From: Chloroherpetonaceae bacterium
Lineage (GTDB): Bacteria; Bacteroidota; Chlorobiia; Chlorobiales; Thermochlorobacteraceae
DNA length: 64,000 nt
Assembly: GCA_025056565.1 (NCBI GenBank)
Contig: JANWWA010000006.1
Span: 48,102 to 112,101 of the forward strand
Direction: 5' to 3'
The notes under the pieces are model-generated. The model worked only from the letters and a program-made list of their open reading frames with translations, was not told the DNA's origin and did not search any database. Positions 13,847 to 56,086 of the stretch are shown here, piece by piece. Made by a program: the position numbers and the translations under genes. Positions within the stretch are counted from its first letter, which is position 1. Every line of letters begins with the position of its first letter.

Positions 13847-13847
13847 A

Positions 13848-14030: not shown

Positions 14031-14040
14031 GCACACAACA

Positions 14041-14337: not shown

Positions 14338-14380
14338 CTGTCTACAACTTTTTCACTACTTGCTCATTCGTGTGCTCTAA

Positions 14381-14427: not shown

Positions 14428-14437
14428 AAAAAGCCAC

Positions 14438-30907: not shown

Positions 30908-31756
30908 TTACTCCTTTACGCTTCCCAAAGTCAAGCCACTGATGAGGTAGCGCGAAAGGCTGACAAACAACACGACGACTGGCACGCTTACCACGATAGC
31001 AGCTGCTGAATACAGCCCCCACGCTACCTCTAAATCGCTTTGGAAGGCTTTTAGCCCCATCGGCAGCGTAAATAAACTGGGATCTTGGATCAAGACAGCA
31101 GCTACCAGATATTCGCTCCAAGCAGTCATAAAGGAAAAGAGTGCAGTGATTGCCAGCGCTGGCTTTGCTAGTGGAAAAATAATTTTCCAAAATGTTTGGA
31201 TTTCTGTGCATCCGTCAATTCTTGCCGCTTCTTCCAAGCTGCGTGGAATGGTATCATAAAATCCTTTCATTTGCCAGACACAAAAAGGCAGTGCAGTTGC
31301 TGTGTAAGCCACAATTAAACCTGAATAGGAATCATAAATTTCTAGCTTAATTAGCATGATGAAAAGTGGCAGCAGCAGCATCGTAACAGGGAACATTTGA
31401 GTTGCAATCAGTAAAATCATCGCAGGGTCGCGCCCGATAAACTTGTATCGGCTAAATGCATAGCCAGCCGTGGATGCCAGTCCAACTGAAACCAGCGTTA
31501 CCACCAACGACACCAACATACTATTAAATGCCCACTTCAAAAAAGGATGTTTTGTAAAGATATCGACATAGTTCTGAAATGTTGCGCCTTCTGGAATTAA
31601 CTCTAGCTTTGATGAAAAGAGGTTATTACTCGGTCTTAGTGAAATCTTGAAGACTTCAACAATTGGGAAGAGTGAAAAAAGGCAAAACAAAACAAGTATC
31701 GCGTAAATTCCTATCTTTGTGATTGGTGAAACATCTCTTGGATTTCTCATTTTCAA
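30908..31756 (-). CDS. ABC sugar transporter permease (MalG-like, CUT1)
   Basis: 282 aa with six TM segments. EAA loop EAARIDGCTEIQTFWKIIFPLAKP. Confidence 0.9.
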   Translation of the reverse strand: MKMRNPRDVSPITKIGIYAILVLFCLFSLFPIVEVFKISLRPSNNLFSSKLELIPEGATFQNYVDIFTKHPFLKWAFNSMLVSLVVTLVSVGLASTAGYAFSRYKFIGRDPAMILLIATQMFPVTMLLLPLFIMLIKLEIYDSYSGLIVAYTATALPFCVWQMKGFYDTIPRSLEEAARIDGCTEIQTFWKIIFPLAKPALAITALFSFMTAWSEYLVAAVLIQDPSLFTLPMGLKAFQSDLEVAWGLYSAAAIVVSVPVVVLFVSLSRYLISGLTLGSVKE

Positions 31757-31770
31757 ACCAACTTTTTGTT

Positions 31771-32730
31771 TTAGTAAACGCTTTGCGTTGCCTTTGTTCT
31801 CTTAATGAAATTCCAACTAAACACAAGCAGCATCACAAAGATAATCATTGAAAACGCAGCTGCATAACCAATTCGGAAGTAGTTCAAACCCACCTTATAG
31901 ACCCAACTTACGAGAATGTGTGTTTGGTCAGATGGCTCACCACCATTGCTTACTAGCCACACTACGTTGAAGTTATTAAAAGTCCAAATTGTGCCTAGTG
32001 TGATAGCAGGTATCATTACTGGCTTTAGGAGCGGAATTGTAATGTGTCGCAACTTATGATACCAGTTCGCTCCATCGATCTCTGCAGCCTCATATAGTGC
32101 ATCAGGGATAGACTGCAGGCCTCCTAGTGCTACTACCATCATAAACGGAAACCCTAACCAGATATTTGCAATTAAGCAAGCGGCAAATGCTCCCCACTCG
32201 GTGCTGAGCCACTGCACACGCTCTAACCCTAGTACTGCCAACACTTGATTTACTGCACCGTATTCCGAATTAAACAGACCGCGCCAGTTCAGCGCCGTAA
32301 TATATTGGGGCACTGCCCAAGGTAAAATCAAGATAACACGAAACAGGTTTTTTGCCCGAATATTTTTATCCAATAAAATCGCCAAAAATACACCGATTGT
32401 TACATGAAAGAAAACATTTGTTGCTGTCCAAAGTATTGTTTTGAATAAAAACCACCAGAACTTCGAATCGGTCAGCACACTGATATAGTTTGAAAAACCT
32501 TTGAAGCGCCAATCTTGGAAATGCTCTAAGTTCATATTGCTAAAGCTTACCACCACATTGTAAATAAATGGGTAAAGCACCACCGCTGCCATCACAATTA
32601 GAGCAGGTAGCGCATAAAGGTAAGGCACAGGATTAAATTTCTTCCCTGCTGGTTCGTGCGTCTGACCATCTTGCGTCGTTGCACTTTGCTGTGCAACGCT
32701 CGTCCTCTCCAATTTCGTGGCTACTTGCAT
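31771..32730 (-). CDS. ABC sugar transporter permease (MalF-like, CUT1)
   Basis: 319 aa. EAA loop EAAEIDGANWYHKLRHITIPLLKP. ILILPWAVPQYITALNWRGLFN is typical of MalF-type permeases. Confidence 0.9.
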   Translation of the reverse strand: MQVATKLERTSVAQQSATTQDGQTHEPAGKKFNPVPYLYALPALIVMAAVVLYPFIYNVVVSFSNMNLEHFQDWRFKGFSNYISVLTDSKFWWFLFKTILWTATNVFFHVTIGVFLAILLDKNIRAKNLFRVILILPWAVPQYITALNWRGLFNSEYGAVNQVLAVLGLERVQWLSTEWGAFAACLIANIWLGFPFMMVVALGGLQSIPDALYEAAEIDGANWYHKLRHITIPLLKPVMIPAITLGTIWTFNNFNVVWLVSNGGEPSDQTHILVSWVYKVGLNYFRIGYAAAFSMIIFVMLLVFSWNFIKRTKATQSVY

Positions 32731-32734
32731 ACTA

Positions 32735-34021
32735 CTATTCTCTCATTTCTTTAATGAGTTTGACAGCTAAGTCTTGCATTTCTTTAGCTGCTTCGGTCGG
32801 CGACTTGCTGCCATTAATAACCGATTGATAAGCCGGTCGCATTGAATCCCAGATTACACGCATTTCGCTCACAACAGGCATTGCCACTCCAACGCTTAGT
32901 TGTTCAAACGACCCTCGCAAAATTTCGTCTTCCTGCAGGATAGGGTCACGGTAGGCTTCCACACGCGCAGGAATAGTGCCTGCTCGACGTGTGTATTCTA
33001 GCATCACCTCTGGGCTGCAGAGAAACCTTAACAATTTGCAAGTTGCTTCCAATTTTTCCCCTTTCGTGTTGACATTAATACTGTAGCCTCGTGGCGAAAT
33101 CATCGGTGCAGGGTATTTTCCTGTTTCATCAATCATCGGTATTCTTGCCACACCGAAATTAATTCTCGCTTCTTTGTAGCCTGCCCACGCCCAAGGACCG
33201 TTGATAATCATTGCTGCTTTTCCTTCTCTGAATAGCGTATTCGCTGTGTTGTAATCGCATTCCTGTGGAATAATTCTATGCTTGTCTCGCAAATCTTTAA
33301 TTAGCTGAGCCGCTCTCACAGTTGCTTCACTATTTAATTTTGGTTCGGCGTTTTCATTCATTACGATTCCACCGTATCCGCCAAGAAACGGCACAAAAAA
33401 ATACGGCTCGGTGTAGTTCCATACCAATGCGTATTGGTCAGGCTTTCCATCGCCGTCGAGATCTTTCGTGAAAGTCTTCCCCCACTCAATGAGTTCATTC
33501 ATCGTTTTCGGGGGCGTTGGAATTAAATCCTTGTTATACACTAAGCAAAGGTGGTTACCAATCTGGTCACCAATTTGGTATAAATGTCCATCTAAGTAAG
33601 TGTTTGCAGGAATAGGCTTTGTGATAAAACTATCTAAAAAGGCTGGCTCAAACAAGTTTTCCAGCGGTTGAATAACCCCCAACTTTACAAACGGTCCTAC
33701 CATATCGCTTGGACCGTAGACCAAATCTGGGCCTGAGCCACCTAACGCTGCAATCATAAAATTTGTCCGAAGTTGCTCCGTCTCGTAATACAACTCTCGA
33801 AAGCGGTATCCTTTTTCTGTAAGTAATTTGCCATCAGGGTGCTCCACTGCGAACTTTACTAACATTTCACTTAACACCTTCCGCTCACCGGGATTCATTT
33901 GCGTCCAAACCGTAATCACTTTTTCGCGTTCATTTGCACAGCCCCAAAGTAAGGCAGCAACAATTAAAAGCCATTTTTTTGACTCTAAGATTCTTGCGCT
34001 TCGCTTCGTGCGCTGCTTCAT
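32735..34021 (-). CDS. ABC substrate-binding lipoprotein, MalE-like (maltose/maltodextrin-type)
   Basis: 428 aa. Lipobox LLWGC. IINGPWAWAGYKEARINFGVARIP parallels E. coli MalE [23 protein letters not shown]. The C-terminal MPVVSEMRVIWDSMRPAYQSVING parallels MalE [21 protein letters not shown]. Confidence 0.85.
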   Translation of the reverse strand: MKQRTKRSARILESKKWLLIVAALLWGCANEREKVITVWTQMNPGERKVLSEMLVKFAVEHPDGKLLTEKGYRFRELYYETEQLRTNFMIAALGGSGPDLVYGPSDMVGPFVKLGVIQPLENLFEPAFLDSFITKPIPANTYLDGHLYQIGDQIGNHLCLVYNKDLIPTPPKTMNELIEWGKTFTKDLDGDGKPDQYALVWNYTEPYFFVPFLGGYGGIVMNENAEPKLNSEATVRAAQLIKDLRDKHRIIPQECDYNTANTLFREGKAAMIINGPWAWAGYKEARINFGVARIPMIDETGKYPAPMISPRGYSINVNTKGEKLEATCKLLRFLCSPEVMLEYTRRAGTIPARVEAYRDPILQEDEILRGSFEQLSVGVAMPVVSEMRVIWDSMRPAYQSVINGSKSPTEAAKEMQDLAVKLIKEMRE

Positions 34022-34028
34022 ACCGCGG

Positions 34029-34070
34029 AAAAATATTAAAAGACAAGGCTCGGCAGTATGCCGAGCCTTG
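34029..34070 (-). terminator. intrinsic-terminator-like hairpin between the CBM-like gene and the SBP gene
   Basis: Perfect 12-bp stem (CAAGGCTCGGCA at 34044-34055 and TGCCGAGCCTTG at 34059-34070) with a 3-nt loop. On the minus strand it is followed by TCTTTTAATATTTTT. The T-tract ends about 8 nt before the SBP ATG (34021). Confidence 0.55.
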
Positions 34071-34085
34071 TCGATTTTGCAGCAA

Positions 34086-35672
34086 TTACTTCACCAGCAT
34101 CATCTTCATTGTTTGCCTGAAGTTGCCGGCGCTGATGCGGTAGAAATACATTCCACTCGAGAGGTTTGTTGCGTTGAACTGCACGGTGTATGTGCCCGCT
34201 GCCAAGCGCTGGTCAACCAGTGTCGCGACTTTGCGACCTAACACGTCAAAGACATCCAGCTGCACATTCTCCGCTGTTGGAATGGAGAAGCGAATGGTCG
34301 TGCTTGGGTTAAACGGGTTCGGATAATTTTGCTCTAAGCGATACTGACGTGCAACAGGCGCTGACAGGTCGCGCTCTGGGGCACTAAGTGATGCATTCCC
34401 GCCTGCAAACACTGCACGCACTGTTGCTGTTGAACCGACTGGAATTGTTGCTGGGAAGTTCACTAAGTAGTCTGCCCCCACCAAGCCTTCATTATCCAAA
34501 CGTCCATTTGCTGGTGATGGATCGTCGAAGATGCCACGGTAGAAGATAGAAAACTTGAATGGCCCAAATGCTGTCGAAGTTGCTGGAATCACTGCCTCAA
34601 AGACACCTGGCGGTTCAGTGCGGCTGGAATCGAGGAAGATGAATCGTTGTGCGGCTGGAATAGCCTGACCAGGTGGTGGTGGGTTCGAGTTGCGCAAAAG
34701 TGAGGTATCGTTCCAGTTCGGCCAAGCTCCGAAGACTCCCTCACCAGCGATATAGAGACCGTAACGCAAGCCGTTTAGGTCGCCACGCAGCGCCCCCGCC
34801 GCACGCAGTGAATCAATGCTTCTGCCGCCCAGCGTGCGCCGGCCGCGCGTATCTAGCACGACACGCACATTGAAGTTTCGGCTTACGCGAATTGCAATCA
34901 CGGGCTTGAGTGGCGTTGGCGTAGCGTCGAGGTCAGCAGTGCCTGTGCCGAAGTTGAATCGACGATTTTCCCCGATTTCCCAGCCACCGTTTGTAAAGCG
35001 CCCACCTGTTGGACTATACGCTTTGAACTTCCACTCCACAGTGCTGTTTTCTTCTGCAGTGATGCTGATTGTATCTACGAAGGTTGAAGTCAAGCCCACA
35101 CGGCGCATTGCGGGTGGCGTGCCTGTCCAGTCTCTGAAAGGTCCTGTAACCCCAATCGTATCGCCTGCACCAAAGCCTGACGCCAAAAGGTCACTCATAT
35201 CGGCTCGGAAAATCACACGGCGAGTGCGGCGTGGAAAGCCTTGCGATGGGTTATCGTTCCAGTAACGTGAAACGGTAAGTGTTTCTGCTGCAGCTTGACG
35301 GAATTCAACTCGGCGGTCATCTCCATCCTCAAATCTCAGTGGGCGACCTGCGGCAAGGTTGCGGTAAGTGAACTTGTAGGTAATTGTGCCGATGTTTGCT
35401 GCACCCAGTGGTCTGAAAGGCCCTGTATAGACAGTGTCGTTTGCATTTGCACTTACCACGCCAATGCGCGTTGAGTCACCCGGTTGCGAGTAGCGACCTC
35501 CTGCACCTGAAAAAATGAGTGCATAGAGCGTGTCGCCCGCTTGAATTTCACCTGTCTGTCTTAAGCGTCGGATATTCACTGAAAAGCGCACCACATCTTG
35601 CGCCTGCGCCCACACATCGGTGGAAGATAGCAGCAGTAGTAACAGTAAAAGCAAGTGATACCTCTTGAACAT
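34086..35672 (-). CDS. secreted T9SS cargo protein with tandem CBM20/48-like modules
   Basis: 528 aa. Signal peptide MFKRYHLLLLLLLLLSSTDVWAQA. C-terminal Por secretion tail (NYPNPFNPSTTIRFSIP...SGMYFYRISAGNFRQTMKMMLVK). Internal modules carry starch-binding-like motifs (GDTIGVTGPFRDWTG...VEWKFKAY...GGWEIGENRRFNF and ITYKFTYRN...RFEDGDDRRVEF). Confidence 0.7.
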   Translation of the reverse strand: MFKRYHLLLLLLLLLSSTDVWAQAQDVVRFSVNIRRLRQTGEIQAGDTLYALIFSGAGGRYSQPGDSTRIGVVSANANDTVYTGPFRPLGAANIGTITYKFTYRNLAAGRPLRFEDGDDRRVEFRQAAAETLTVSRYWNDNPSQGFPRRTRRVIFRADMSDLLASGFGAGDTIGVTGPFRDWTGTPPAMRRVGLTSTFVDTISITAEENSTVEWKFKAYSPTGGRFTNGGWEIGENRRFNFGTGTADLDATPTPLKPVIAIRVSRNFNVRVVLDTRGRRTLGGRSIDSLRAAGALRGDLNGLRYGLYIAGEGVFGAWPNWNDTSLLRNSNPPPPGQAIPAAQRFIFLDSSRTEPPGVFEAVIPATSTAFGPFKFSIFYRGIFDDPSPANGRLDNEGLVGADYLVNFPATIPVGSTATVRAVFAGGNASLSAPERDLSAPVARQYRLEQNYPNPFNPSTTIRFSIPTAENVQLDVFDVLGRKVATLVDQRLAAGTYTVQFNATNLSSGMYFYRISAGNFRQTMKMMLVK

Positions 35673-35762: not shown

Positions 35763-36791
35763 TCAAAATTCCAGACTTAATGCGAACCACTGTGGCGGAT
35801 TTAGTCGCCCAAAAGTCTGATAAGTGTAGTCAAAGCGCAGGACAACAGTACTAATCGGGTAGCGCAGGCCTGCACCAAAAGTCAGGCCTTTTTCACTTTC
35901 TCGCTCGAAGAGTGCATTGTAGCCGATGCGCACAAAGAAAATATCTTTCCACGCATATTCGCCGCCAAGATTCAGCGTCTGCCCGTTGTCGAGCGGAATT
36001 GCAGTATCTAAGGCAAACGAGAACCGATTGGTCTCATCACGCAAGACATCGTAACTAACGCCGATTCGGTAAATGAGTGGCAAGTTAAACTGATCGGTGA
36101 GTAGGCGTGCAGGCACATTGCTATTGACGCCCCGCTGCGTGCCGCCAGTTTGGTCATAGTTCACCGTCAGTCCTTCGCCGTCCAAGCGCATTTGCGTGCC
36201 AAAGTTGCTGATGCTTGCACCGAGTTTTAAGCCATTTGGCAGAAGACCCGTATCGTAGTAGAACCCGATATCGAGTGCAAAGGCATTAGCTGCGGTGCGG
36301 AAGATGGATTGATTGATAAACTTCAAGGTGATGCCAACGGAGAAGCGGTCTGTGAGACTTTTACCCCAAGAGAGCTGAGCCGCAAAATCACTGGCAGAAA
36401 AGGTCTCGCCTGTGCCATCTGGGTTAGAGATGGTCGTCACTTCAAAGTTGCCATAGTTTAGCGCTGTAATTGCCACGCCGAAACTGCCTGCAATACCTGC
36501 CGGGACTGTAGCACCTGCCCAGTTGATTTGTGTGCCAATGAGCCACTGCGTATGCGTAAAACCCACGCGAATCTTATCGCTCCGCACAATTCCTGCGGGA
36601 TTCCAGTAGAGTGCAGAAATGTCGTCTGCCAGTGCTACAAAGGCACCGCCAAGTGCCGTTGCTCGCGCTCCCATTCCAATACCTAAAAATGGCGCGGCTG
36701 TAGTGCCAAATTTCGATTGCGCCTGTGCTGCACAGAACGGCAGCCCAACCGCCGTTAGAATGATGAGCCACTTTGAAATTCCCTGCTTCAT
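35763..36791 (-). CDS. porV: PorV/PorQ-family outer-membrane barrel (T9SS-associated)
   Basis: The track ORF starts at 36884. I prefer ATG 36791, preceded by AAGGAGGAAAAA. Signal peptide MKQGISKWLIILTAVGLPFCAAQAQ. GTTAAPFLGIGMGARATALGGAFVALADDISALYWNPAGI matches the PorV N-terminal signature. C-terminal Phe. Confidence 0.75.
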   Translation of the reverse strand: MKQGISKWLIILTAVGLPFCAAQAQSKFGTTAAPFLGIGMGARATALGGAFVALADDISALYWNPAGIVRSDKIRVGFTHTQWLIGTQINWAGATVPAGIAGSFGVAITALNYGNFEVTTISNPDGTGETFSASDFAAQLSWGKSLTDRFSVGITLKFINQSIFRTAANAFALDIGFYYDTGLLPNGLKLGASISNFGTQMRLDGEGLTVNYDQTGGTQRGVNSNVPARLLTDQFNLPLIYRIGVSYDVLRDETNRFSFALDTAIPLDNGQTLNLGGEYAWKDIFFVRIGYNALFERESEKGLTFGAGLRYPISTVVLRFDYTYQTFGRLNPPQWFALSLEF

Positions 36792-36801
36792 TTTTTCCTC
36801 C

Positions 36802-39800
36802 TTACTTGATAACGGCGAACTTGCCGGTTTTTGTGCCAATGCCGGGCGCATCGACATGGTAGAGATAGATGCCATAAGCGACATCTAAATTCTCCGATGT
36901 TTTCAAGTCCCACTCTACTTGCGAGGTTGGATAGGAAAACGTGCCAACGCCTTCATTTTCTCGGTCACGCTTGCCGAAACTGGTATTGCCATCGGGGTTA
37001 TCGGCGTAGAGCGTGCGAATCAGTTCGCCACGAATGGTGTAGATGCGAATCGTAGAGCGCAGCGGCACATTCTTGAAGAAAATTTTTCGTGCCGCGCGTC
37101 CGCGCGTATCGGCACCCACCAGATTGCCTTCGGCTGTGTTGGTTACAATGTAAGGATTCGGGAATACCTTGATATTGTCTAACGCACTCTTTACGCGCTC
37201 AGGGTCTTCAGTTTGTGCTTTGAGTTCGACTGTAAATCGGTCAACCGCTGTGATAGGCCGCTTCGTGCGAATAAACAGCGTATCACCCGGCTTCGGGAAG
37301 TAGCGTGCTGGCGAGATGTTGATGTTCCATGAAAAGAGTGTATCGATTGCTGAACCTTCTGGCTGCTCGCAGATACTGAGATTGACGCCAAATTCGCCAA
37401 TTTCGCTGCCTGTAGCAGGGTCTAAGAAAAACCGCTCGGGTTGCCCAGTCAGTAGGTTAATGACTTGGAAATTCGTGTTGCGCGCAGGCAGCGAGGTTAG
37501 GACGCCATCGACGATTAAGTTCACAGGGCTCGATCGCCCCGGACGCATCACGATAGCGTATTCAGCAGGTTTGCGAATCGCTCTGCCACGAATGCTTGGT
37601 GCAAGCAGTTGTGCAGTAAAGGCATTGAGCCGCGGCACAGTATCTTCGAAAATCGTGCGCACGCCTGGCACACGCCAAAATGCACGATCGAGCCGCGTCT
37701 CTGGCACATTGACAATCGTAAAGAATGTGCCGATTTTGTCAATTAGTGCCGTCTCTTCGGTGGCGCGGTAGAAAAGGTCTCCTTCCTGCGTTTGCTGATA
37801 CAGTGCAGGGTTCCCCAAGAAGCGCTGAAAGACGCCGTTGATAATACCGCTCTGCCGAAGCAGTGTATCAGGACGCGAGGGATTTGTTATATCCAACACG
37901 CGAAAGAAACTTGTGCGTGGTTCAAGTGTTTCGTCAGGGTCAGCCGCATCAAGTAACCCATCGCCATCATTGTCAATACCGTCGTTGCTAGTATCTCTGA
38001 ACTCTACTTGAATGCGCCTATCTCGGTCAATTTTGCGTGGGTTGATGAGGTCATAAATCACGCGACCTGAACCCCGATTTAGTGCACTGGGTCGCAAGGT
38101 ATCAGATGACGGGCTATTGTTACGCAGCCCCGCTTGCTCGGCACGTGGGGTAACCGCTACAGTGTTGGGGCTAAGCAACAATCGACCACGGCCGTCAATA
38201 AAGCCACCAATGCTATTTTCACTCGGTGGAATCGCGGCTGCAGGGTTCGGCACCACGATGACCGAATCACGGCTGATGCGATAGAGCGTATCAAACGGAA
38301 TGTAGCCCCGTGAATATGCTGCCACCGCATAGTAGTAAGTGCGTCCGTTCTCAACATCGGTATCGGTGAAAGTGTGCGTGAGTCCTGTTTCTTTGCCAAG
38401 ATAGAATGCGACACCACGCGATTGCTCTGACAAACCGCGTCCCACCAGTGGGAAGTATCCAAAAACACCGTTGATTTTGTCGAACTGTGCAATTGGCGCT
38501 AATCTAAAGCGCTGCTCGCCTTGTCCGCCTGAAATCACCCGTGCATCGCTGAACTGCGGGTCTGTGCTTTTGTAGATTTTGTATCCCTCGAAGGTAAAGG
38601 CTCTTGGGTCGCGTCGTGTGCCTTCTGCTCCCACAATGCGGCGGTTGATGAAGACATCAAAGTAGTCTTCGGCTTCGCTTGTCCAATAGAGTGTAACGCG
38701 CCGGTCACCTGGAATAGCAGAAAGACGCGGTGCAGGGCGCGGCGGTCCAGCAAAGTTGTAGTTATTGTCATAAATCTCTTGCACAATGTCTTTATTGGTC
38801 AAGATTTCATCGGCGGTTTGACCGAAGACCAGTGCAATGGAGAGCCGTTCCGTTTGTCCGCGCTTCAAAGGAAAGTAGCCTGTGCCGTAGGTATAGTCGC
38901 CATCTTTCGGCACAAGGTCCAGCGTATCGAAGACACCGGGCGTCGTAACACGCCAGAGATCATCAGAGTTGCCCATCTGTGGCGAGGCAGACAGGTCAAA
39001 CTTGTAGCTTGTTAATCCAATCTGGTCTGCTTCTACCACATCTGTTGCATCAAATGCCGATTCGCCCGTCGTCGGTGTGGCGTTGTTTTCACCTCTATCA
39101 CCTGTGCCAGGCCTGCCATCGGTGCCAACATCGTCCAAGAGTGTCCAATTTCCATTGTTGTCTAAACCGTCGTCTCGCCGCTCATCAATCATTGGGAAGC
39201 GTGTGGGGTCATTCAAATTCTCCCCATTGCGCGCCAGTTGAATGTAGTTGATAAAGCGCAGGGGCGGCAAAAGAATGATGCGTGAGCGTCCCGTTACGAT
39301 GTCTGCTTCTAAGCGCGTTCGGCGGAAGTGTAGGCGGTAGTCTTCGTCAATGATACCGTTCAGGTTGTTATCAATCAGGTCGCCTGTGATTTCACGCAAT
39401 GTATCGCCAACCGAAATGGTGCGCGTAATGCCCTGTGAGGTAATGGTAATGCTGCCCGAAGCCGGCATTGTTACGGCACGTCGCCACGAGACTGTATATG
39501 GCTCTGTATAACCTGCTGCTACGCGTGCAGGGGTTTGAATTAAGGTATCATTAATCGTGATAAGAATATCGCCGCCACGGATCACTCTCGGAGCGTTTTC
39601 GCCACGAAAAATACCTCGCTGCACATCTGCGACAAATTCATAAAAGTCGTAGCCTGTCGGCGAGATTTGTCCAACAGGAATTGCCGCAAATTGGCTTGGT
39701 GTCCCTCGATTAGGAATCGCAAACGGCCCACTACCGATTTTGTTCCAGTCATCATCGTTATCAATGCCATCGAAAGGATTGCCTGGGCTTTCTAAGAATG

Positions 39801-40905
39801 CCACGCCTACATAGCCTACAGGAAAATTGCGATTCCATGCGCCATCGACGGCTGTTGGGTCAGGACGCAAGTTAGTTTCTGAGACAGGGTTCCATGTGTA
39901 GGTAATCGAGCGACTCTGGTCAAAGACAGACACATTGCGCTGAAACTGTCGTCCAACCGCTGTACCGACTACTGAGCCAAACACTACCTTGTCGTAGTCG
40001 TAATCGCTAATGTTTTTGATTTCGTAGAGCCAGAAAATGTTGTCTTGTGCAAGAAAACTTGACCATTGTAAGCCACGTGCTTTAACTTGGAAGCCTACGC
40101 CGTAGCGGTTTGGGTCAGAGGTTGGACGGAAGCCAAACTCTTCAAACCAGCGGCGGTCTGTAGCGTCATCGAAGACGAAGTAACTTTCTTGGTCTGCATT
40201 GAAGACTCCACGCCCGAAGTAGCCGTTCCAATCCGCTTTGCCTGTTGCTGGGTTAATCCAAGTCGGTTGGTCTGGCCAGCGGTCAGGCCATGAGGAAGGA
40301 ATGTGGCTCATTGCAGGAAATTCTTCGGCGGGATTGAAAAATCCTTCAACGGGCTGCAAGCCTTCGAACTGACCATTGACGATACGATATCCTCCTCCTC
40401 GCGGTCCTTGATGCGTCGTAACATAGCGCGCTACAGCCGTTACATCTGCTGCTCGCTGTCCATTTACCACAATGTTGCGAATCGTCGTATTGAGTCGGCC
40501 ACGCGGAATGGTTACAATCTGGTTATCGCGCAGGCGTCGTCCTGTCAGAGCAGTGGTATCGTTGTTGGTGTAAATGATAGTATCGCGAAAGACGCGCTCC
40601 ACGCCGAGAATGATGTTCAGGTCGTAGATGTATTCGTTTTCATCAACCGGCCAAGCACAGGTAGGCAAGAGTGGCGCAATAAAAGTTTTGCTACCGATAA
40701 GACCATCATTTTGGAACTTTGTGCGCACGCGATTGCCATTGTGCAATCCCACACGCCGATTGGCTCGACTGCTGCGCAAATTGAGCGGAATGTTCTGTGC
40801 CATTGCGTCTATGCTCTCGCCTGCAAGTATCCAAAAGGCCAGTAGCCACACCAGTTGGTATGGGAGACGCTTGGCGCAGTGTGCAGCTGGGAAAGAGTTT
40901 CTCAT
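36802..40905 (-). CDS. very large secreted protein of unknown function with Ca-binding-like Asp/Asn loops and a T9SS-like C-terminal domain
   Basis: 1367 aa. Signal peptide (LVWLLAFWILAGESIDAMAQ). DxDxDG-like loops are encoded at 39742-39771 (DGIDNDDDWN), 39340-39381 (DLIDNNLNGIIDED), about 39083-39189 (DDGLDNNGNW..DDVGTDGRPGTGDRGENN) and 37930-37986 (NDGIDNDGDGLLDAADPDE). The C-terminus KVFPNPYIV...TIRIYTIRGELIRTL...WDLKTSENLDVAYGIYLYHVDA...GKFAVIK resembles an expanded T9SS sorting domain. Confidence 0.7.
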   Translation of the reverse strand: MRNSFPAAHCAKRLPYQLVWLLAFWILAGESIDAMAQNIPLNLRSSRANRRVGLHNGNRVRTKFQNDGLIGSKTFIAPLLPTCAWPVDENEYIYDLNIILGVERVFRDTIIYTNNDTTALTGRRLRDNQIVTIPRGRLNTTIRNIVVNGQRAADVTAVARYVTTHQGPRGGGYRIVNGQFEGLQPVEGFFNPAEEFPAMSHIPSSWPDRWPDQPTWINPATGKADWNGYFGRGVFNADQESYFVFDDATDRRWFEEFGFRPTSDPNRYGVGFQVKARGLQWSSFLAQDNIFWLYEIKNISDYDYDKVVFGSVVGTAVGRQFQRNVSVFDQSRSITYTWNPVSETNLRPDPTAVDGAWNRNFPVGYVGVAFLESPGNPFDGIDNDDDWNKIGSGPFAIPNRGTPSQFAAIPVGQISPTGYDFYEFVADVQRGIFRGENAPRVIRGGDILITINDTLIQTPARVAAGYTEPYTVSWRRAVTMPASGSITITSQGITRTISVGDTLREITGDLIDNNLNGIIDEDYRLHFRRTRLEADIVTGRSRIILLPPLRFINYIQLARNGENLNDPTRFPMIDERRDDGLDNNGNWTLLDDVGTDGRPGTGDRGENNATPTTGESAFDATDVVEADQIGLTSYKFDLSASPQMGNSDDLWRVTTPGVFDTLDLVPKDGDYTYGTGYFPLKRGQTERLSIALVFGQTADEILTNKDIVQEIYDNNYNFAGPPRPAPRLSAIPGDRRVTLYWTSEAEDYFDVFINRRIVGAEGTRRDPRAFTFEGYKIYKSTDPQFSDARVISGGQGEQRFRLAPIAQFDKINGVFGYFPLVGRGLSEQSRGVAFYLGKETGLTHTFTDTDVENGRTYYYAVAAYSRGYIPFDTLYRISRDSVIVVPNPAAAIPPSENSIGGFIDGRGRLLLSPNTVAVTPRAEQAGLRNNSPSSDTLRPSALNRGSGRVIYDLINPRKIDRDRRIQVEFRDTSNDGIDNDGDGLLDAADPDETLEPRTSFFRVLDITNPSRPDTLLRQSGIINGVFQRFLGNPALYQQTQEGDLFYRATEETALIDKIGTFFTIVNVPETRLDRAFWRVPGVRTIFEDTVPRLNAFTAQLLAPSIRGRAIRKPAEYAIVMRPGRSSPVNLIVDGVLTSLPARNTNFQVINLLTGQPERFFLDPATGSEIGEFGVNLSICEQPEGSAIDTLFSWNINISPARYFPKPGDTLFIRTKRPITAVDRFTVELKAQTEDPERVKSALDNIKVFPNPYIVTNTAEGNLVGADTRGRAARKIFFKNVPLRSTIRIYTIRGELIRTLYADNPDGNTSFGKRDRENEGVGTFSYPTSQVEWDLKTSENLDVAYGIYLYHVDAPGIGTKTGKFAVIK

Positions 40906-40938: not shown

Positions 40939-43900
40939 TTACAGAGCAAAACTTACACCCACCAGCACCTGACGCGGTGGTGCAAAGAGTTGTGGTCGCC
41001 GCTGATATTCTTCTGGTGTATTGACGCTTGAGCGCACACGCGTATTTTGGAAAATGAGGTCTGGCGTCAGCAACGCAAAAGGATAGTTTCCTGACTGGTT
41101 GCTAAAATCCAGAAGGTTGTAGACCTGCACATAGAGGCTCAGCTTACTCTTGTCGAGTGTGAAGGTTTTTTGTGCGCGCACATCTAACGTGAAAGTTGCC
41201 GGCCGTGTCAGCGAGTTGGTTACAATTTCACCTCGGCTGCCACGCACAAGAATTGGGAACGGCGCATTGAGGTCAGGCGTGTAGGGGAATCCGCTGCCAA
41301 AGCGTGCAATTGCACTTAGCATCCAGCCGTCAATATCAAAATTGCCTGTCAAGTTTAAAGTGTGCGTTTGATTCCAGTCCAGCGGCACCAGTGTCGTTGG
41401 CAATGGCGCATTTGCAGCCAGTGCAAAGGCTGCAGCGGCTGGATCGGATGCATTACCTTGAGCCACTTGGAAGGTGTAATCCACGCCGAAGTTGAAGAGC
41501 TGAGAGAAGCGCTTATCGATGCGAATCGTTAGACCTCGCGTCAAGGCATAATCGGTGTTTACAAATTGTGTGTAGGCGCCTCTGTCAAAATACTCTCTAA
41601 TGAATGCGCTGCCGTTAAGGTCGCGAATGTCGTTAAAATACAGTGCCACATCGACGGAGATGTCTTCTCCAAACTGTTGCTGTAAGCCCAGTTCGCCCTT
41701 GATAGTGCGTTGCGGTTTCAGGTCAGCATTGCCAAATGGACCGCTGACACTGGCAGCAGGGTCTCGTCGAAAGAAGGGATTGCGATAAAGAAACTCGAAG
41801 TTTGGGATTTGAAAGACTTGCCCGAAGAAAAAGCGCAGCACGCTGGTCTCGGCAATCGTAAAGGCTACCCCCAAGCGTGGGCTAAGCTGCCACTTAAGAC
41901 TTGCGCGCTCATAGTTGCGACTGAGCAATTCCTGACCGTTGCGCACATAAATCGGCAGATTTTCTCGGATGTTCGGCACTACATTGCCATTTGCATCACG
42001 GGGTAAGTTTTCAGGACGGAGCGGGTCATATGGACTTGGGTCCGACGGATCTTTGGGCACGATGCCATCGGGGTAGAACACATCTAAGCGCAGCCCAAAG
42101 TTGACAATGAAGCGGTTGATTTCAAACTTATCTTGAATGTAAGCAGCAAACTCAATCGGTCGGCGGTCATAAAACTCGTAGCCTGCTTCCCCCAGTTCAG
42201 CGCGCCGCAGCCGAATCACCCCTGTTTGCAAAGAGCTTTCATCAAGAAATAGACTGGCACTTTCCAAGAGCAAGCGATGAAACTTGATATCGAAGCCTGC
42301 TTTGACCAGATTTTCCGTGTTGACCTGCGAGGCAATATCGCCCTTGATGTTAATCGTGGTTGTAGAGCGGTCGAAATACCCTGTTTGTGCACCCGTTACG
42401 AGAAATTCCTGCCCGAAATCCGCTTGTCCAGGACGATACGCTCCAGCAGGTGTCAGCCCATTGATGCCCCAATTGAGATAGCGTTTATCCAGTGGGTCTT
42501 CGTAGAGGTAGTTCTTCACGCTCACATGGAGCAGCGATGCGCCCAGTGTGAAGTAGGTTGCAGCGGAAATGGGCTGCGTAAGATTCACAATCCCGGTGTA
42601 AGAGCGGCGAAAATTATTGCTGACCCCGTCTGGAATGAACTGCCAGTCAAAGTCAAACTCTCGGAAGCGCTCATCAGAGAATTGAAACTGCGCACTGATT
42701 TTGGATAGTCCGGGTCGGAAGGTAAGCTTGCCCAGCCCAGCAAACTTTCGATAGGGGTTCATTGGCACAAACTCTCCGTTGCCCGTTGCGAACTGTCGGA
42801 AATTGTCTGTCGCTTGACTTAGCACGCGATAGACCCTAATGCCTTTGGTCGCAATTTCCGCATCGTTTCGTGGCGGATCACTGGGGTCAACAGGATAGAA
42901 GAAAAAGTCTCGTGCGTCAGGATTTTGGCGTTGGTAATCGGCAACCAGTCGGTCTCGTTCCTGCACGCTTCGTGCCGTACCAATGTAACCACCGATTCGA
43001 TTGCCCGTGAAAATGCTTGCAGGCAAAATATCACCCGGGTTAAAGATGCGCTGCCCATAGAAGCGTCCCTCGTCTTCGAAGTATCGTGCATTGACAAAGA
43101 ATGTGAGCAAGTCTTTCTGTGCATCTGCAATCGGAATCGGCCCGCTGAAACTGCCTTGAATATCGCGAGAGCCTACTGTGCGAATGTTATTGACATTTTG
43201 GAACAAATCGGTGCGCGGCGTAAGGTACCCACCGAAGAAGGTTTGTAGGTTGCCTTCGTAGTTCGTGCCCCCTTCTTTGGTTACGATGTTGATGATGGCG
43301 GACATTGCTTGACCGTACTCGGCATTGTATCCGCCTGTGAGCAGTTCCAGCTCTTGAATCGCCTGTGACTCGACGCCTAAATTGTTGATACCACGCCCCT
43401 GATTACCGTCATAGACGTCATTGACCATAAAGCCGTCGACAATGTAGGCTGCTTCCCCGCGCCGTCCGCCGCGGAAGGTCCCCCCCACTACACCAGCTTG
43501 AATCTCCAGCACCTGCGCAGGGTTCTGAATCGGAAGCGCAAGAATTTCCTCATTTCCGACGGCGGCACGAGTTGCGGTCATATCTTTGACCACCAGTGGG
43601 CGTTCAGCCGTGATGACTACCTCTTGTGCCTGCACGCTCTCAATGCGCAGCTTGAAGTCTGCTCGGGTCGTCATATCCACACTAACCTTGACGTTGCGCA
43701 GCGTTGCAGTTTGGTAGCCCACATATGAACAACGTAGCGTGTAGGTGCCGGGCGGCACATTGAGAATGACATAGTCACCGTCAATGTTGGTTTTGCCACC
43801 CAGTTTTGTGCCTTCTACCACTACAGTGGCTCCAATTAGTGGCTCATTGGTCTCTGCATCGACCACTCTGCCAGCAATCTTCCCTGTTGTGCCGAGCCAC

Positions 43901-44031
43901 TTGCCGCACTCTGACCGCTCTCGTGGCAGTGGACTTTCGCTCGCAAGCAGCGTCGGTGCACAAAGCAAAATATGCAGCAAAAGGTAACACAAGGTAGGGA
44001 AGGCGTGTGGGACTACACTGCTTGACTTCAT
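40939..44031 (-). CDS. TonB-dependent receptor with N-terminal carboxypeptidase-regulatory-like domain
   Basis: The track ORF begins at GTG 44094. ATG 44031 is preferred (purine-rich AAAGGGGA upstream; signal MKSSSVVPHAFPTLCYLLLHILLCAPTLLA), with ATG 44049 as an alternative. CarboxypepD_reg segment GKIAGRVVDAETNEPLIGATVVVEGTKLGGKTNIDGDYVILNVPPGTYTLRCSYVGYQ. Plug (AQVLEIQAGVV) and about 750 aa of barrel. Confidence 0.9.
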   Translation of the reverse strand: MKSSSVVPHAFPTLCYLLLHILLCAPTLLASESPLPRERSECGKWLGTTGKIAGRVVDAETNEPLIGATVVVEGTKLGGKTNIDGDYVILNVPPGTYTLRCSYVGYQTATLRNVKVSVDMTTRADFKLRIESVQAQEVVITAERPLVVKDMTATRAAVGNEEILALPIQNPAQVLEIQAGVVGGTFRGGRRGEAAYIVDGFMVNDVYDGNQGRGINNLGVESQAIQELELLTGGYNAEYGQAMSAIINIVTKEGGTNYEGNLQTFFGGYLTPRTDLFQNVNNIRTVGSRDIQGSFSGPIPIADAQKDLLTFFVNARYFEDEGRFYGQRIFNPGDILPASIFTGNRIGGYIGTARSVQERDRLVADYQRQNPDARDFFFYPVDPSDPPRNDAEIATKGIRVYRVLSQATDNFRQFATGNGEFVPMNPYRKFAGLGKLTFRPGLSKISAQFQFSDERFREFDFDWQFIPDGVSNNFRRSYTGIVNLTQPISAATYFTLGASLLHVSVKNYLYEDPLDKRYLNWGINGLTPAGAYRPGQADFGQEFLVTGAQTGYFDRSTTTINIKGDIASQVNTENLVKAGFDIKFHRLLLESASLFLDESSLQTGVIRLRRAELGEAGYEFYDRRPIEFAAYIQDKFEINRFIVNFGLRLDVFYPDGIVPKDPSDPSPYDPLRPENLPRDANGNVVPNIRENLPIYVRNGQELLSRNYERASLKWQLSPRLGVAFTIAETSVLRFFFGQVFQIPNFEFLYRNPFFRRDPAASVSGPFGNADLKPQRTIKGELGLQQQFGEDISVDVALYFNDIRDLNGSAFIREYFDRGAYTQFVNTDYALTRGLTIRIDKRFSQLFNFGVDYTFQVAQGNASDPAAAAFALAANAPLPTTLVPLDWNQTHTLNLTGNFDIDGWMLSAIARFGSGFPYTPDLNAPFPILVRGSRGEIVTNSLTRPATFTLDVRAQKTFTLDKSKLSLYVQVYNLLDFSNQSGNYPFALLTPDLIFQNTRVRSSVNTPEEYQRRPQLFAPPRQVLVGVSFAL

Positions 44032-44140
44032 AGAGTTCCCCTTTCTCATTGTCACAGCAACGGGTTTCCAGAGTGCCGATACCGCACTACGCACTCCTTG
44101 TTTCCCCGCTTCTCATTGTCTTGGTTTTAGGTTACAGCTA

Positions 44141-53092: not shown

Positions 53093-53257
53093 CTTCGCTT
53101 TTAACCTACTTGCTTTCTTCAAATGCAATATGGGACTTGGCTTAGCGTTGAACCAACCGCATCAATGCTTTTTGCGAGTGCTTGAACGTTTGCTACATTT
53201 TTTTAGTTTTGCCGGCAAAGTAACTCTTTCAACAAAACGCAAAACGACTGTTTGACT

Positions 53258-56086
53258 ATGCTGAAAGTCTTTACGCACGGTTGGCGTTTTGCCATCGCAG
53301 TCACCTTCTTAGGCTTTTCGATCTGCTCTTTCTCATACCCAGTTTTTGCTCAGGAATATGGCACCATTTCAGGCAAGGTTACAGATGCAAAGTTTGGTGA
53401 GCCTTTGCCTTTTGTGCGCATTCAAGTCGTGGACTCCAAGCTCGGCACCGTGTCGCAGACAGATGGGCGATACAGTTTTCGCGTGCCGCCGGGCGAATAT
53501 ACCTTGCGCGTCTCCAGCATCGGCTATGCCCCACAGATCGCAAAAGTCAAAGTCGGTGCTGGCGAAACCGTCGTGAAAGACTTTGTGCTGGTCGAGACCT
53601 TCGTGCAAGCGCAAGAACTGGTCGTTACAGGCACACGCCGCAGCGACCGCACGGTGACCGAATCACCTGCTCCGATTGACATCATTACGGCCAAAGAAAT
53701 TCGTCAGATGGGGCAAGTAGAGACAAACCAAATCCTACAGTTTCTTGTCCCGTCTTACAACTTCCCGCGTCCCTCAATTACTGATGGCACTGACCATGTG
53801 CGTCCTGCCACACTGCGCGGAATGGGGCCTGACCAAGTGCTGGTGCTTCTAAACGGCAAGCGCCGTCATACCTCCGCGCTGGTTAATGTTAACGGCTCAA
53901 TTGGACGTGGTGCGGCAGCTGTAGATCTGAATGCGATTCCTGCCAGTGCCATAGAGCGCATTGAGATTTTGCGTGACGGCGCTGCGGCACAATATGGCTC
54001 TGATGCCATCTCAGGCGTTATTAACATTATTTTGAAAAAGGACGCGCCGTCTAATGTCTCTGCACAGTTTGGGCAAAATCTTGAGGGCGATGGACGCGTT
54101 TTGCAGGCTGATTTTTCACATAGTTTTCGCCTGAGCGAAAACGGTTTTCTTAACCTTAGTGGCGAGCTGCGCGACCGTGGCTTTACTAACCGCTCAGGGC
54201 GCGATGAACGACAGCTTTTTTCACTTGTAAATGGTAACCCTGACCCACGCGAGAATACCATCAACCGCATTAACCATCGCTTTGGCGATGCCGCCACGCT
54301 TGATGGCACATTTTTCTTCAATCTTTCACAGCCTATCTCTGAGTCGTTTGCCGTCTACAGCTTCGGCGGTTTCGGTTACCGGCGTGGGGAGGCCACTGGC
54401 TTTTTCCGGCCGTCGCAAGACGACCGTGTAGCGCGTTCCCGAGATGCAAATGGCAACATTGTTGCCTTGCATCCCGATGGCTTTTTGCCAATGATTCGCA
54501 GCAACATTTACGATATGTCGGCGGCGGCTGGACTGGAAGGTCGCTTGGGAAGCTGGGACTTGAATGTGGGCGTCGTGCACGGACGCAACTACTTTGATTT
54601 CAATGTGGTCAATAGCAATAATGCTTCTTTGGGCGCAATTGTCTCGCCGCAAGATGCACCAATTTTAGGCTTACCTGTTGGCGCACCGACTCCGACTTCT
54701 GCCTACTGCGGCACAATCTCATTTTTCCAAACTACTGTCAATGCTGATGCCCACACACAGCTTTTCTGGGGTCTTGCTGCTCCGCTCAATCTTTCGCTCG
54801 GCGCAGAGTATCGCAACGACCAATATGGCATCCGCGAGGGTGAGCCAGCCTCGTATATGCGCGGTCGGGGTCCTGATACACTGGTTCTGCGTGCTAACGG
54901 CACACGAGGAGGCTTAGCCGCTGCTGGCATTCAAGTTTTCCCCGGCTTTCAGCCTGTCGATGCCAAGCAGATTGGACGCAATAGCGTCGCCCTGTATGTC
55001 GAGGCAGAACAAAACTTCACAGAGTCTTTTCTTTTGAACCTTGCAGGTCGCTTTGAGAACTTTAGCGACTTTGGCTCTACCATTAACGGTAAAGCAGCTT
55101 TCCGATTTGAGTTTCTCAAAGGCTATGCGATTCGCGGCTCAGTGAGCACGGGTTTCCGTGCACCCTCCATGCAGCAAATCGGGTTTTCGACGGTTTCCAC
55201 GAACTTTATCGGTGGTGTGCCGTTTGAAATCAAGACCTTTACCGTCGATGACCCTGTGGCACGTGCGCTTGGCGCAAAGCCATTGAAGCCTGAACGCACG
55301 CTGAATTTCGCAGGCGGCTTAACCTTAGACCCCGCTCCGAATTTTTCTCTTACCGCCGACTACTACCACATTACCGTTACTGACCGAATTGTACTCTCTG
55401 GTAACTTTATTGGCGATGCGATTCGCAACTTCCTTGCACAGCGAGGCTTTTCAGGTGTCGGTGGCGGGCGCTTCTTTACGAATGCGATTGATACGCGCAC
55501 ACAAGGCGTAGATGTGGTCGCACGCTATGTGCAGGACTTGGGTCAGTATGGCGTGCTTCGTTTTACAGTTGGTTTCAACTACACACAAAACCAGATTATC
55601 AACATCAACACACCGACACCGCCTGAATTAGGCAATCTGAACGAAACTCTCATTGACCGTGTAGAGCGCTTCCGCATTGAGCGCGGTCAGCCACAAACCA
55701 ACTTGAACCTGATGCTCAACTACAACTATGGTGATTTTGCCTTGATGCTTCGCACAGTGCGCTTCGGTGAAATTGCAGCTCCTGCATTTGGTCAATTACC
55801 CGAAATTAATCCTACCATTACCATCAACAATGTCATTTACCCTGACATTACAGTCTTTGACCAGACCTTTGGTGCGCGCTGGATTACAGACATTGATCTC
55901 TCCTATCGCTTCTTTGATAGGCTGACCGTCGCTGTAGGAGGCACTAACATTTTCAACATCTATCCCGACCGCACGATTTTGATTCCTAACAACGCCAACA
56001 GCGGTCGCATTTTGCCCTTCTCTGGCGCTTCGCCATTTGGATTCAATGGTGCACATTTCTACTCACGCATTTCATATGCGCTGTAA
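53258..56086 (+). CDS. TonB-dependent receptor (CarboxypepD_reg + plug + barrel)
   Basis: About 942 aa from ATG 53258 (the track begins at TTG 53252). Signal peptide ending FAQE. GTISGKVTDAKFGEPLPFVRIQVVDSKLGTVSQTDGRYSFRVPPGEYTLRVSSIGYA. Plug (DRTVTESPAPIDIITAKEIRQMG, ATLRGMGPDQVLVLLNGKR). Terminal aromatic-rich strand ...HFYSRISYAL. Confidence 0.9.
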   Translation: MLKVFTHGWRFAIAVTFLGFSICSFSYPVFAQEYGTISGKVTDAKFGEPLPFVRIQVVDSKLGTVSQTDGRYSFRVPPGEYTLRVSSIGYAPQIAKVKVGAGETVVKDFVLVETFVQAQELVVTGTRRSDRTVTESPAPIDIITAKEIRQMGQVETNQILQFLVPSYNFPRPSITDGTDHVRPATLRGMGPDQVLVLLNGKRRHTSALVNVNGSIGRGAAAVDLNAIPASAIERIEILRDGAAAQYGSDAISGVINIILKKDAPSNVSAQFGQNLEGDGRVLQADFSHSFRLSENGFLNLSGELRDRGFTNRSGRDERQLFSLVNGNPDPRENTINRINHRFGDAATLDGTFFFNLSQPISESFAVYSFGGFGYRRGEATGFFRPSQDDRVARSRDANGNIVALHPDGFLPMIRSNIYDMSAAAGLEGRLGSWDLNVGVVHGRNYFDFNVVNSNNASLGAIVSPQDAPILGLPVGAPTPTSAYCGTISFFQTTVNADAHTQLFWGLAAPLNLSLGAEYRNDQYGIREGEPASYMRGRGPDTLVLRANGTRGGLAAAGIQVFPGFQPVDAKQIGRNSVALYVEAEQNFTESFLLNLAGRFENFSDFGSTINGKAAFRFEFLKGYAIRGSVSTGFRAPSMQQIGFSTVSTNFIGGVPFEIKTFTVDDPVARALGAKPLKPERTLNFAGGLTLDPAPNFSLTADYYHITVTDRIVLSGNFIGDAIRNFLAQRGFSGVGGGRFFTNAIDTRTQGVDVVARYVQDLGQYGVLRFTVGFNYTQNQIININTPTPPELGNLNETLIDRVERFRIERGQPQTNLNLMLNYNYGDFALMLRTVRFGEIAAPAFGQLPEINPTITINNVIYPDITVFDQTFGARWITDIDLSYRFFDRLTVAVGGTNIFNIYPDRTILIPNNANSGRILPFSGASPFGFNGAHFYSRISYAL

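Follow-up and report, generated by a model that had tools for sequence, protein, structure and literature searches.

A conserved three-gene outer-membrane module with an unannotated large secreted protein, BIG, a candidate partner of TonB-dependent receptors in glycan loci

The window analyzed here is a stretch of 64,000 nucleotides of DNA from a Chloroherpetonaceae bacterium (contig JANWWA010000006.1). It encodes a 1367-amino-acid secreted protein, here given the working name BIG, in an open reading frame (ORF) with an ATG start on the minus strand (36802..40905). BIG is a real, conserved and unannotated protein family within a real gene module, whose other members are a TonB-dependent receptor (TBDR) and a barrel of the PorV/PorQ family. 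BIG may be a surface partner of the TBDR that is exported through the type IX secretion (T9SS) machinery and docked by a retained C-terminal domain (CTD) on its own PorV/Q-like barrel, a reading to which we give about an even chance. Similarly balanced in our judgment is the proposal that the three-gene outer-membrane module has BIG as its signature subunit and organizes glycan-utilization loci in Fibrobacteres-Chlorobi-Bacteroidetes (FCB) lineages outside classical Bacteroidia.

The module was scanned in one genome per species, which gave 80 loci, 53 of them with complete genes. The loci span no fewer than nine lineages of the FCB group (Chlorobiales, Kryptonia, Calditrichota, Ignavibacteriota, Stahlbacteria, Neomarinimicrobiota, Rhodothermales, Balneola, and KSB1). 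The TBDR, BIG, and PorV-like genes occur together in 53/53 complete loci. Their order is TBDR > BIG > PorV-like in 50 and TBDR > PorV-like > BIG in 3, and the median intergenic gaps are ~17 and ~12 nt. In tblastn searches with the window neighbors, a TBDR and a PorV-like gene likewise lie immediately beside the BIG homologue on every contig that extends far enough. In the window, 33 nt separate the end of the TBDR gene from the start of BIG. The mechanically called PorV-like ORF overlaps BIG by 83 nt (window 36789-36884), and the true PorV-like start is probably the ATG at 36791 (MKQGISKWLIIL...), 10 nt past the BIG stop codon. A preliminary description of this DNA, made from the sequence alone, had placed BIG between a TBDR and a PorV-type barrel; this placement holds in the window, and the linkage extends to every complete locus.

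It is very unlikely that BIG is T9SS cargo of the ordinary kind, an adhesin or a surface-layer protein whose CTD is cleaved, that the PorV-like protein works on its own as a FadL-type channel, and that co-regulation alone accounts for the gene order. The architecture is adhesin-like, with FN3/Ig-like sandwiches, Ca2+-type loops, and generic Foldseek matches to repeat arrays (6xi3, 4p99, 5irb). Co-regulation, however, would not readily keep complete adjacency over phylum-level distances, with only ~10-20 nt between the genes and a PorV paralogue of its own in each module. The family-specific insertion in the CTD and its PorZ-like character, described below, also argue against an ordinary cargo protein.

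The module lies among genes for carbohydrate-active enzymes (CAZymes), regulators, and transporters. Among 67 genes just downstream, matches are to Por_Secre_tail (36), FlgD_ig (17), CBM_20 (13), and alpha-amylase (6), and GH66, GH94, GH26, GH10, glucoamylase-like proteins, and sodium:solute symporters are found as well. The 108 upstream genes include response regulators (14), LacI-type regulators (7-9), and CTD proteins (13), along with amylase, GH31, CBM9, GDSL esterases, and ABC permeases; the SusD family is absent from the 25 most frequent families among them. Two Melioribacteraceae loci are of a mannan type, with GH26, CE2, CBM9, and a SurA-like peptidyl-prolyl isomerase (PPIase), and one of these is the locus labeled M. 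roseus (L076). Because varied CAZyme sets surround one and the same module, the module is a generic organizer of glycan loci with differing specificities.

Genes for SurA-like PPIases (rotamases) flank the module in ~12 loci, especially where the genes stand in the variant arrangement TBDR > PorV-like > BIG. One lies at 13387-14823 of locus L023, and those of L019 and L020 are assigned by equal gene position and size. A parallel is the dome of the Bacteroidota BAM complex, which has surface PPIases and stands on BamG, a barrel of the PorV/FadL type. In at least one metagenome-assembled genome (MAG; isolate SRP323688_co1_225) there are two BIG modules, each on its own contig (loci L035 and L058), and in several loci, among them L014, L018, and L057, another PorV-like or TBDR gene lies close by. 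These cases suggest paralogous modules inside one genome, as with polysaccharide utilization loci (PULs).

The BIG family is composed of at least 1601 homologues of ~1150-1400 aa, and every homologue named in its source is labeled "hypothetical protein." The named sources are Ignavibacteria, Calditrichota, Marinimicrobia, Kryptonia, Rhodothermia, and unclassified "Bacteroidota" MAGs, and the window BIG has a 100% identical counterpart, likewise labeled "hypothetical protein," in a Chloroherpetonaceae MAG. With residues 40-722 alone as query, 610 clusters (50% identity) reach E<=1e-3, and 183 reach E<=1e-30. Pfam-A gives 0 matches on the window BIG, and in NCBIfam the sole match is an acidic repeat, below threshold, on the fourth of its acidic loops. 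In 40 full-length members searched permissively, the matches are of CTD type only. In Pfam these are CHU_C (27/40, weak, although the CTD is type-A-like), FlgD_ig (12/40), and Por_Secre_tail (3/40); in NCBIfam they are PorZ (29/40), TIGR04183 (12/40), and PorU (9/40). No Pfam or NCBIfam model covers the ~1100 residues outside the CTD. Sequence and profile searches of the PDB return nothing significant (a Teneurin-4 acidic peptide, E 0.05; the PorU CTD; an Fn3-like chain, E 0.29). No description of the BIG family or of the three-gene module was found in the literature. The earlier assignment to an unrecognized family therefore stands, and the structure searches described below agree with it.

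The CTD is the part of BIG with recognizable relatives. It is typically ~111 aa in the family and 132 aa in the window BIG. Aligned with hhalign, 28 family CTDs match 23 canonical type-A CTDs taken from neighboring cargo genes with 98% probability (E 2.2e-13). When the 28 family CTDs are isolated and searched against NCBIfam, the C-terminus of PorZ matches 28/28 (best E 3e-9), PorU 25/28, and TIGR04183 23/28 (best E 6e-6); only the last ~90 positions of the PorZ model (NF052228, cutoff >=260 bits) align to them. AlphaFold2 (AF2) places seven strands in residues 1246-1365, and the sole PDB match of the C-terminal model (866-1367) at E<=1e-3 in Foldseek is PorZ (5m11, E 5.9e-5, prob 0.99). Because of the hhalign result, the PorZ and PorU model matches, and the Foldseek match to 5m11, the BIG CTD is regarded as a genuine but divergent type-A-like domain, closest by model and fold to the retained CTDs of PorZ and PorU. 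PorU and PorZ are T9SS substrates with uncleaved CTDs, and PorZ complexes with PorQ (PMC10947112).

A T9SS-like C-terminal domain with long insertions had been described from the motifs KVFPNPY (residues 1246-1252), GIYLYHVDA (1345-1353), and GKFAVIK (1361-1367), and at the level of the family both parts of this description are borne out. One insertion of ~16 aa follows the PNPY strand and is family-wide, with the consensus E.PLP..RGRGER (E..LP..RGRGER in the window). A second, of ~20-28 aa, is confined to the lineage of the window BIG.

The kinship of the CTD raises the possibility that BIG is instead a locus-specific T9SS attachment or scaffold factor, an analogue of PorZ and PorU. Together with the PorV-like barrel, it would capture the CTDs of CAZyme cargo and retain or process them near the receptor, without itself being a receptor partner. 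Besides the nearness of the CTDs, this is consistent with a partner from the PorV/PorQ family, which is known for CTD binding (PMC10947112), with the type-A CTDs encoded by 36/67 downstream and 13/108 upstream genes, and with the size of BIG, which is about that of PorU. We nevertheless consider it unlikely, as outside the CTD it resembles neither the PorZ propellers nor the PorU C25 protease, Cys and His are nowhere invariant, several loci lack CTD cargo in the sampled flanks, and the strict adjacency to the TBDR is left unexplained.

Three whole-protein identities suggested by matches at the CTD were rejected. BIG is not a PorU sortase (NF033707, cutoff 420 bits), since it matches at CTD level only and has no invariant Cys or His. 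It is not a PorZ homologue, as the match is again confined to the CTD and the predicted secondary structure gives no hint of repeated propeller blades. It is also not an M6-like inactive protease, as it lacks catalytic residues and the matches are at CTD level only. Judging from their names, the NCBIfam models PorV2 (NF052325) and "T9SS-dependent M6-like inactivated metalloprotease" (NF052323) may stand for a further case in which a PorV paralogue goes with a large CTD protein.

The rest of BIG is almost entirely beta. The AF2 model of residues 40-1239, built from an alignment of 114 homologues with ~40% mean identity, has a predicted local distance difference test (pLDDT) of 89.5 and a predicted template modeling score (pTM) of 0.82. 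A second model of residues 866-1367 (pLDDT 85.3, pTM 0.80) has low confidence only at its N-terminal end (~866-895) and in the lineage-specific CTD insertion; its pLDDT is 45-76 over residues 866-925 and >90 from ~925 on. The domain boundaries given here are approximate and are drawn from secondary structure, pLDDT, and conservation, rather than from model coordinates.

Residues 37-721 are the most conserved part of BIG. Their pLDDT is mostly >85, and they match nothing in Pfam, NCBIfam, or, by Foldseek at E<=1e-3, the PDB. The FN3-like domain that follows has the conserved motifs VTLYW...FEGYKIYK...NG.TYYYAV. Pfam fn3 is unmatched in the 40 members, the Fn3-like PDB chain is a weak profile match at E 0.29, and the best Foldseek PDB matches of the 1200-residue model are FN3 tandems (E 7e-3 to 4e-2, TM ~0.07). 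Residues 866-1235 are the least conserved, with many indels and a mean pairwise p-distance of 0.73 versus 0.54 for the N-terminal region, and in Foldseek this part of the C-terminal model matches only generic Ig/MG/FN3 arrays. Against the PDB, the 40-1239 model has no Foldseek match at E<=1e-3, and against viral structures it matches only FN3-bearing tail proteins (TM <=0.1). The structure prediction and Foldseek search proposed in the preliminary description thus return no confident match to a characterized enzyme or adhesin for the body of the protein.

Conservation within the N-terminal region centers on a Trp-rich segment and acidic loops. In the Trp-rich segment SWPDRWPDQPTW, singled out earlier as conserved-looking, W206, P207, and W210 are invariant among the 114 homologues and P211, D212, P214, and W216 are >=90% conserved. 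Loop 1 contains the string DGIDNDDDWN (residues 379-388), and D379, G380, I381, D382, N383, D384, and D386 are each found in 107-114 of the 114 sequences. Loop 2 (DLIDNNLNGIIDED) has the invariant positions D512, G517, D520, and E521. Loop cluster 3 (DERRDDGIDNDGDW...) contains DDGLDNNGNW (578-587) and DDVGTDGRPGTGDRGENN (591-608); D574, D582, D622, E625, D627, and G630 are invariant, many further positions are >=90% conserved, and the AF2 model shows ordered coil (pLDDT ~85-90). The D[GD][IL]DN core occurs 3 times in BIG versus 0.0085 expected from 2000 composition shuffles. Loop 4 (NDGIDNDGDGLLDAADPDE) falls in a gap in 56-78 of the 114 homologues and is not a family feature. Of the four Ca-binding-like loops proposed earlier, all are present and loops 1-3 are near-invariant, whereas loop 4 is missing from about half of the homologues. 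Pfam TSP_3 and EF-hand give no match in the 40 full-length members at E<=1, and the NCBIfam model acid_disulf_rpt reaches 19.5 bits on loop 4 versus a cutoff of 41. By its defining sequence features BIG is thus not a member of the TSP-3 family, and because the TSP_3 and EF-hand models are unmatched, calcium binding is suggested at the level of motifs.

The acidic residues of this region bear on a further possibility, that BIG is a new surface enzyme family, carbohydrate-active or a Ca2+-dependent hydrolase, that pre-processes the substrates of the receptor. E240, D247, D250, E372, D622, E625, D627, and D670 are invariant in the core, the gene is located in CAZyme-rich loci, and Foldseek has recurring non-significant matches (E 0.06-1.1) to glycoside hydrolases and phosphorylases in their beta-supersandwich domains (9ju0, 8rf9, 6b9o, 5mhf, 6gh3, 2ciq). 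These matches serve as a lead and probably stem from the N-terminal region, because they are absent from the list of the C-terminal model. We hold an enzymatic identity to be distinctly improbable. The acidic residues lie mostly in DxDxDG-type loops typical of Ca2+ sites, and no enzyme fold or model is matched significantly. One conserved core also stands beside unrelated CAZyme sets (alpha-amylase/CBM20, GH66, GH26, GH10, GH94), which is not expected of a substrate-specific enzyme. The family alignment has no invariant Cys, His, or Ser and therefore no catalytic signature, which accords with the absence of a catalytic motif noticed at first reading; the only Cys residues of the window BIG are C10, C83, and C1179.

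The gene and its translation are otherwise as first described. The plus-strand reading of 36802..40905 is stop-rich, and all peptide strings quoted in the preliminary description were recovered in the BIG translation at their residues. BIG was called the largest gene of the locus, which is correct within the operon; the window holds a larger one, the ORF 125-6292 (+) of 2055 aa. NCBIfam at E<=1e-5 gives no match for that ORF, which may be a further giant uncharacterized protein. The N-terminus of BIG is plausibly a Sec signal peptide, and Q37, directly after the predicted signal peptidase I (SPase I) site (window 40795-40797, minus), is >=90% conserved in the family. A Gln right after the predicted site AQA is also found in the PorV-like protein (36716-36718) and in a neighboring 528-aa protein (~35598-35609). 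The rule of Gln at this position does not hold across the entire FCB group (PMC5837995).

In the mechanism proposed here, BIG would be exported by Sec through its predicted signal peptide and would pass the outer membrane via the T9SS using its CTD, a step suggested by CTD homology. The CTD would not be removed. Like PorZ on PorQ and PorU on PorV, it would dock BIG onto the co-encoded PorV/Q-like barrel, and docking would hold a large Ca2+-stabilized all-beta ectodomain beside or over the co-encoded receptor. BIG would then act as an extracellular receptor partner, the functional counterpart of SusD and the surface-lipoprotein partners of Bacteroides transporters. The conserved N-terminal two-thirds may make generic contacts, and the variable C-terminal sandwiches may be the locus-specific part.

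Several points weigh against this proposal. Interaction, surface exposure, CTD retention, and glycan binding are inferred from gene order and homology. The window BIG is unmatched by TIGR04183 and PF18962, both as the whole protein at E<=0.01 and as the isolated CTD at E<=1; its CTD alone is matched only by the PorZ model, weakly (E 0.004, 15.7 bits). The suggested TIGR04183 check on the CTD thus succeeds for most of the family and fails for the window copy. The 64-kb window contains no T9SS core genes; the canonical CTD of the adjacent 528-aa protein suggests that the organism has a T9SS. The conserved core of BIG does not vary with the nearby CAZyme families and is thus unlikely to be a specificity determinant. 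In the window locus another protein, which bears CBMs, could bind the glycan, and the many invariant Asp and Glu of the conserved region are compatible with an enzymatic role. Correlations of pairwise distances (TBDR-PorV-like 0.86, BIG N-terminus-TBDR 0.80, CTD-PorV-like 0.73; after regressing out the BIG N-terminal core, CTD-PorV-like 0.44 versus FN3-PorV-like 0.04) carry no p-value and are confounded by shared phylogeny, and they are taken as weak support because shared descent inflates them.

Among known systems, BIG is most like a combination of two principles, a receptor with a surface partner and an anchor made of a retained CTD on a barrel. The second principle is that of PorZ-PorQ and PorU-PorV in the T9SS attachment complex of Porphyromonas gingivalis, where a large secreted protein with an Ig-like CTD likewise has a PorV/PorQ-family barrel as its gene neighbor or binding partner. 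PorZ and PorU, however, are unlike BIG beyond the CTD, with whole-protein model cutoffs far from reached, and their pairs are tied to the secretion machinery, while the BIG pair is tied to a TBDR and CAZyme loci. The first principle is that of SusC/SusD (RagA/RagB). As in the BIG module, the partner gene comes right after a TBDR with a SusC-type CarbopepD_reg domain, in loci with CAZymes, regulators, and sugar transporters. SusD is a ~550-aa lipoprotein of alpha-helical TPR repeats anchored by lipid, whereas BIG is all-beta, ~1150-1400 aa long, without a lipobox, and would be anchored via the T9SS and the barrel. BIG was rejected as a SusD/RagB protein, as there is no SusD Pfam match in the 40 members at E<=1, it is almost all beta, and it lacks a lipobox Cys.

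Two further systems pair an extracellular protein with a barrel. In SprB-SprF of Flavobacterium johnsoniae and other type-B CTD proteins with PorP/SprF-like barrels, the gene of a T9SS substrate also lies beside a dedicated barrel gene, and the cognate barrel is needed for secretion or anchoring of the substrate (PMC9143113, PMC12618676). The BIG CTD, in contrast, is type-A-like, its barrel is of the PorV/PorQ family, and a TBDR is linked. BamG is a FadL/PorV-type 14-strand barrel beside BamA that carries an extracellular protein canopy or dome (PMC12578637). The BamG-BamH platform resembles the BIG module in its PorV-type barrel with an extracellular protein, and PPIase genes recur at BIG modules. 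BamH-K, however, are lipoproteins, the partner barrel is BamA, and the window PorV-like protein scores only 19 bits on the BamG model versus a cutoff of 250.

Two published loci are of related interest. In a published PUL figure, the alginate locus of Rhodothermus marinus has the order TBDR, hypA (type-A CTD), and hypB (PorV/PorQ family), and its authors give hypA no function (PMC9530828). Compared by architecture alone, this is the three-gene arrangement of the BIG module, but the middle protein is only ~727 aa. The genome paper of Melioribacter roseus calls Mros0761-0759, located after a TonB receptor, "SusC, SusD, SusE" (PMC3534657); the M. roseus-labeled locus among those analyzed here, the mannan-type L076, is a different one. 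In view of this label, we make no claim that these phyla lack SusD.

The features of the window locus are collected in Table 1. The upstream neighbor of BIG scores 78 bits for CarbopepD_reg_2 and 24.8 bits for Plug versus a cutoff of 23.9. On the SusC/RagA model TIGR04056 it reaches 68.9 bits versus a cutoff of 368, over the N-terminal 130 residues only. By sequence it is a TBDR with a SusC-like N-terminus that falls outside the SusC subfamily. The downstream partner scores 221.7 bits on NF033709 versus a cutoff of 90 and stays below the equivalog cutoffs of PorQ (106.5/220), PorV (101.9/250), and PorV2 (72.3/325). It is classed on these scores as a bona fide PorV/PorQ family member that is neither a PorV nor a PorQ equivalog.

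The next gene encodes the 528-aa protein, which scores 47.5 bits on TIGR04183 versus a cutoff of 23. It is 28% identical over 96% of its length to a CBM48/CBM20/CTD protein and has internal repeats of the module, although the CBM20/CBM48-like modules escape detection by Pfam in the window copy. Relatives of this protein, ~500 aa in length, come right after the three-gene module in many loci. The substrate of the window locus is probably an alpha-glucan or maltodextrin, because this T9SS cargo gene with starch-binding modules comes next and is followed by malEFG. A strong terminator-like hairpin lies between the 528-aa gene and malE, so the four outer-membrane genes may form a transcription unit that is separate from malEFG or attenuated ahead of it. 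Elsewhere in the window, a second TBDR with a SusC-like N-terminus (53252-56086, +) is followed two genes on by a GWxTD-domain protein (57235-58572, +; TIGR04514, 99 bits), and these may be a different receptor-associated module.

Table 1. Features of BIG and its neighborhood in the window (residue numbers are those of BIG).
Feature	Positions	Strand	Basis
BIG gene; unannotated family, members ~1150-1400 aa	36802..40905	minus	ORF list and translation
Signal peptide, residues 1-36; predicted SPase I site between AMA and QN, no lipobox	40798..40905	minus	Read from sequence
Conserved N-terminal all-beta region, residues 37-721; Trp segment and loops 1-3	38743..40797	minus	Conservation, AF2
Trp-rich segment, residues 205-216	40258..40293	minus	Conserved in 114 sequences
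Acidic loop 1, N376-N388; consensus NPxDGIDNDGD	39742..39780	minus	114-sequence alignment
Acidic loop 2, residues 509-522; consensus DGxDNDLDGLIDEN	39340..39381	minus	114-sequence alignment
Acidic loop cluster 3, residues 574-634; DERRDDGIDNDGDW...DDVGADG.PGT.D.GEGD...FD.TDV.ESDQIGLTSF	39004..39186	minus	Alignment and AF2
FN3-like domain, residues 722-865	38311..38742	minus	Motifs, weak profile and Foldseek matches
Variable C-terminal beta-sandwich region, residues 866-1235; includes loop 4	37201..38310	minus	Conservation, AF2, Foldseek
Acidic loop 4, residues 974-992	37930-37986	minus	Not conserved
Putative divergent type-A, PorZ/PorU-like T9SS CTD, residues 1236-1367	36805..37200	minus	hhalign, NCBIfam, Foldseek
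Family-wide CTD insertion, residues 1259-1273	37087-37131	minus	hhalign
Lineage-specific CTD insertion, residues ~1301-1328	36922-37005	minus	CTD comparison
TBDR, CarbopepD_reg_2 and Plug	40939..44094	minus	Pfam, NCBIfam
PorV/PorQ-family barrel (14-strand type)	35763..36791	minus	NF033709
528-aa protein, tandem CBM20/CBM48-like modules and canonical type-A CTD	34086..35672	minus	NCBIfam, homology
Terminator-like hairpin, 14-bp stem, 9 G-C pairs, T-rich tail	34042..34072	minus	Consensus scan only; not evidence of function
MalE/MalF/MalG-like sugar ABC transporter genes	30908..34021	minus	NCBIfam, Pfam

Glycan capture in Bacteroidota is currently explained by SusC/SusD pairs with lipoprotein partners. 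TonB receptors and T9SS-exported CAZymes are present in the sister lineages that are dominant in hot springs, sediments, groundwater, and the dark ocean, but to our knowledge the receptor partners of these lineages have so far been undefined. BIG is a concrete, testable candidate for the missing receptor partner. A wider claim, which we put forward tentatively and hold somewhat less probable than its opposite, is that the TBDR, BIG, and the dedicated PorV/Q-like barrel form an undescribed SusD-independent, T9SS-anchored nutrient-import complex that organizes PULs, in which the ~700-residue core of BIG would be a new Ca2+-dependent fold capping or gating the receptor. The range proposed for this PUL organizer, stated with similar reserve, is Ignavibacteriota, Chloroherpetonaceae, Rhodothermota, Calditrichota, Marinimicrobia, KSB1, and relatives. 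The BIG family merits its own Pfam or NCBIfam model, and the three-gene signature could locate PULs in genomes where SusD-based PUL predictors return nothing. If the proposal is true, the anchoring of a retained CTD on a PorV/Q barrel, known so far from the secretion machinery, would reach nutrient uptake.

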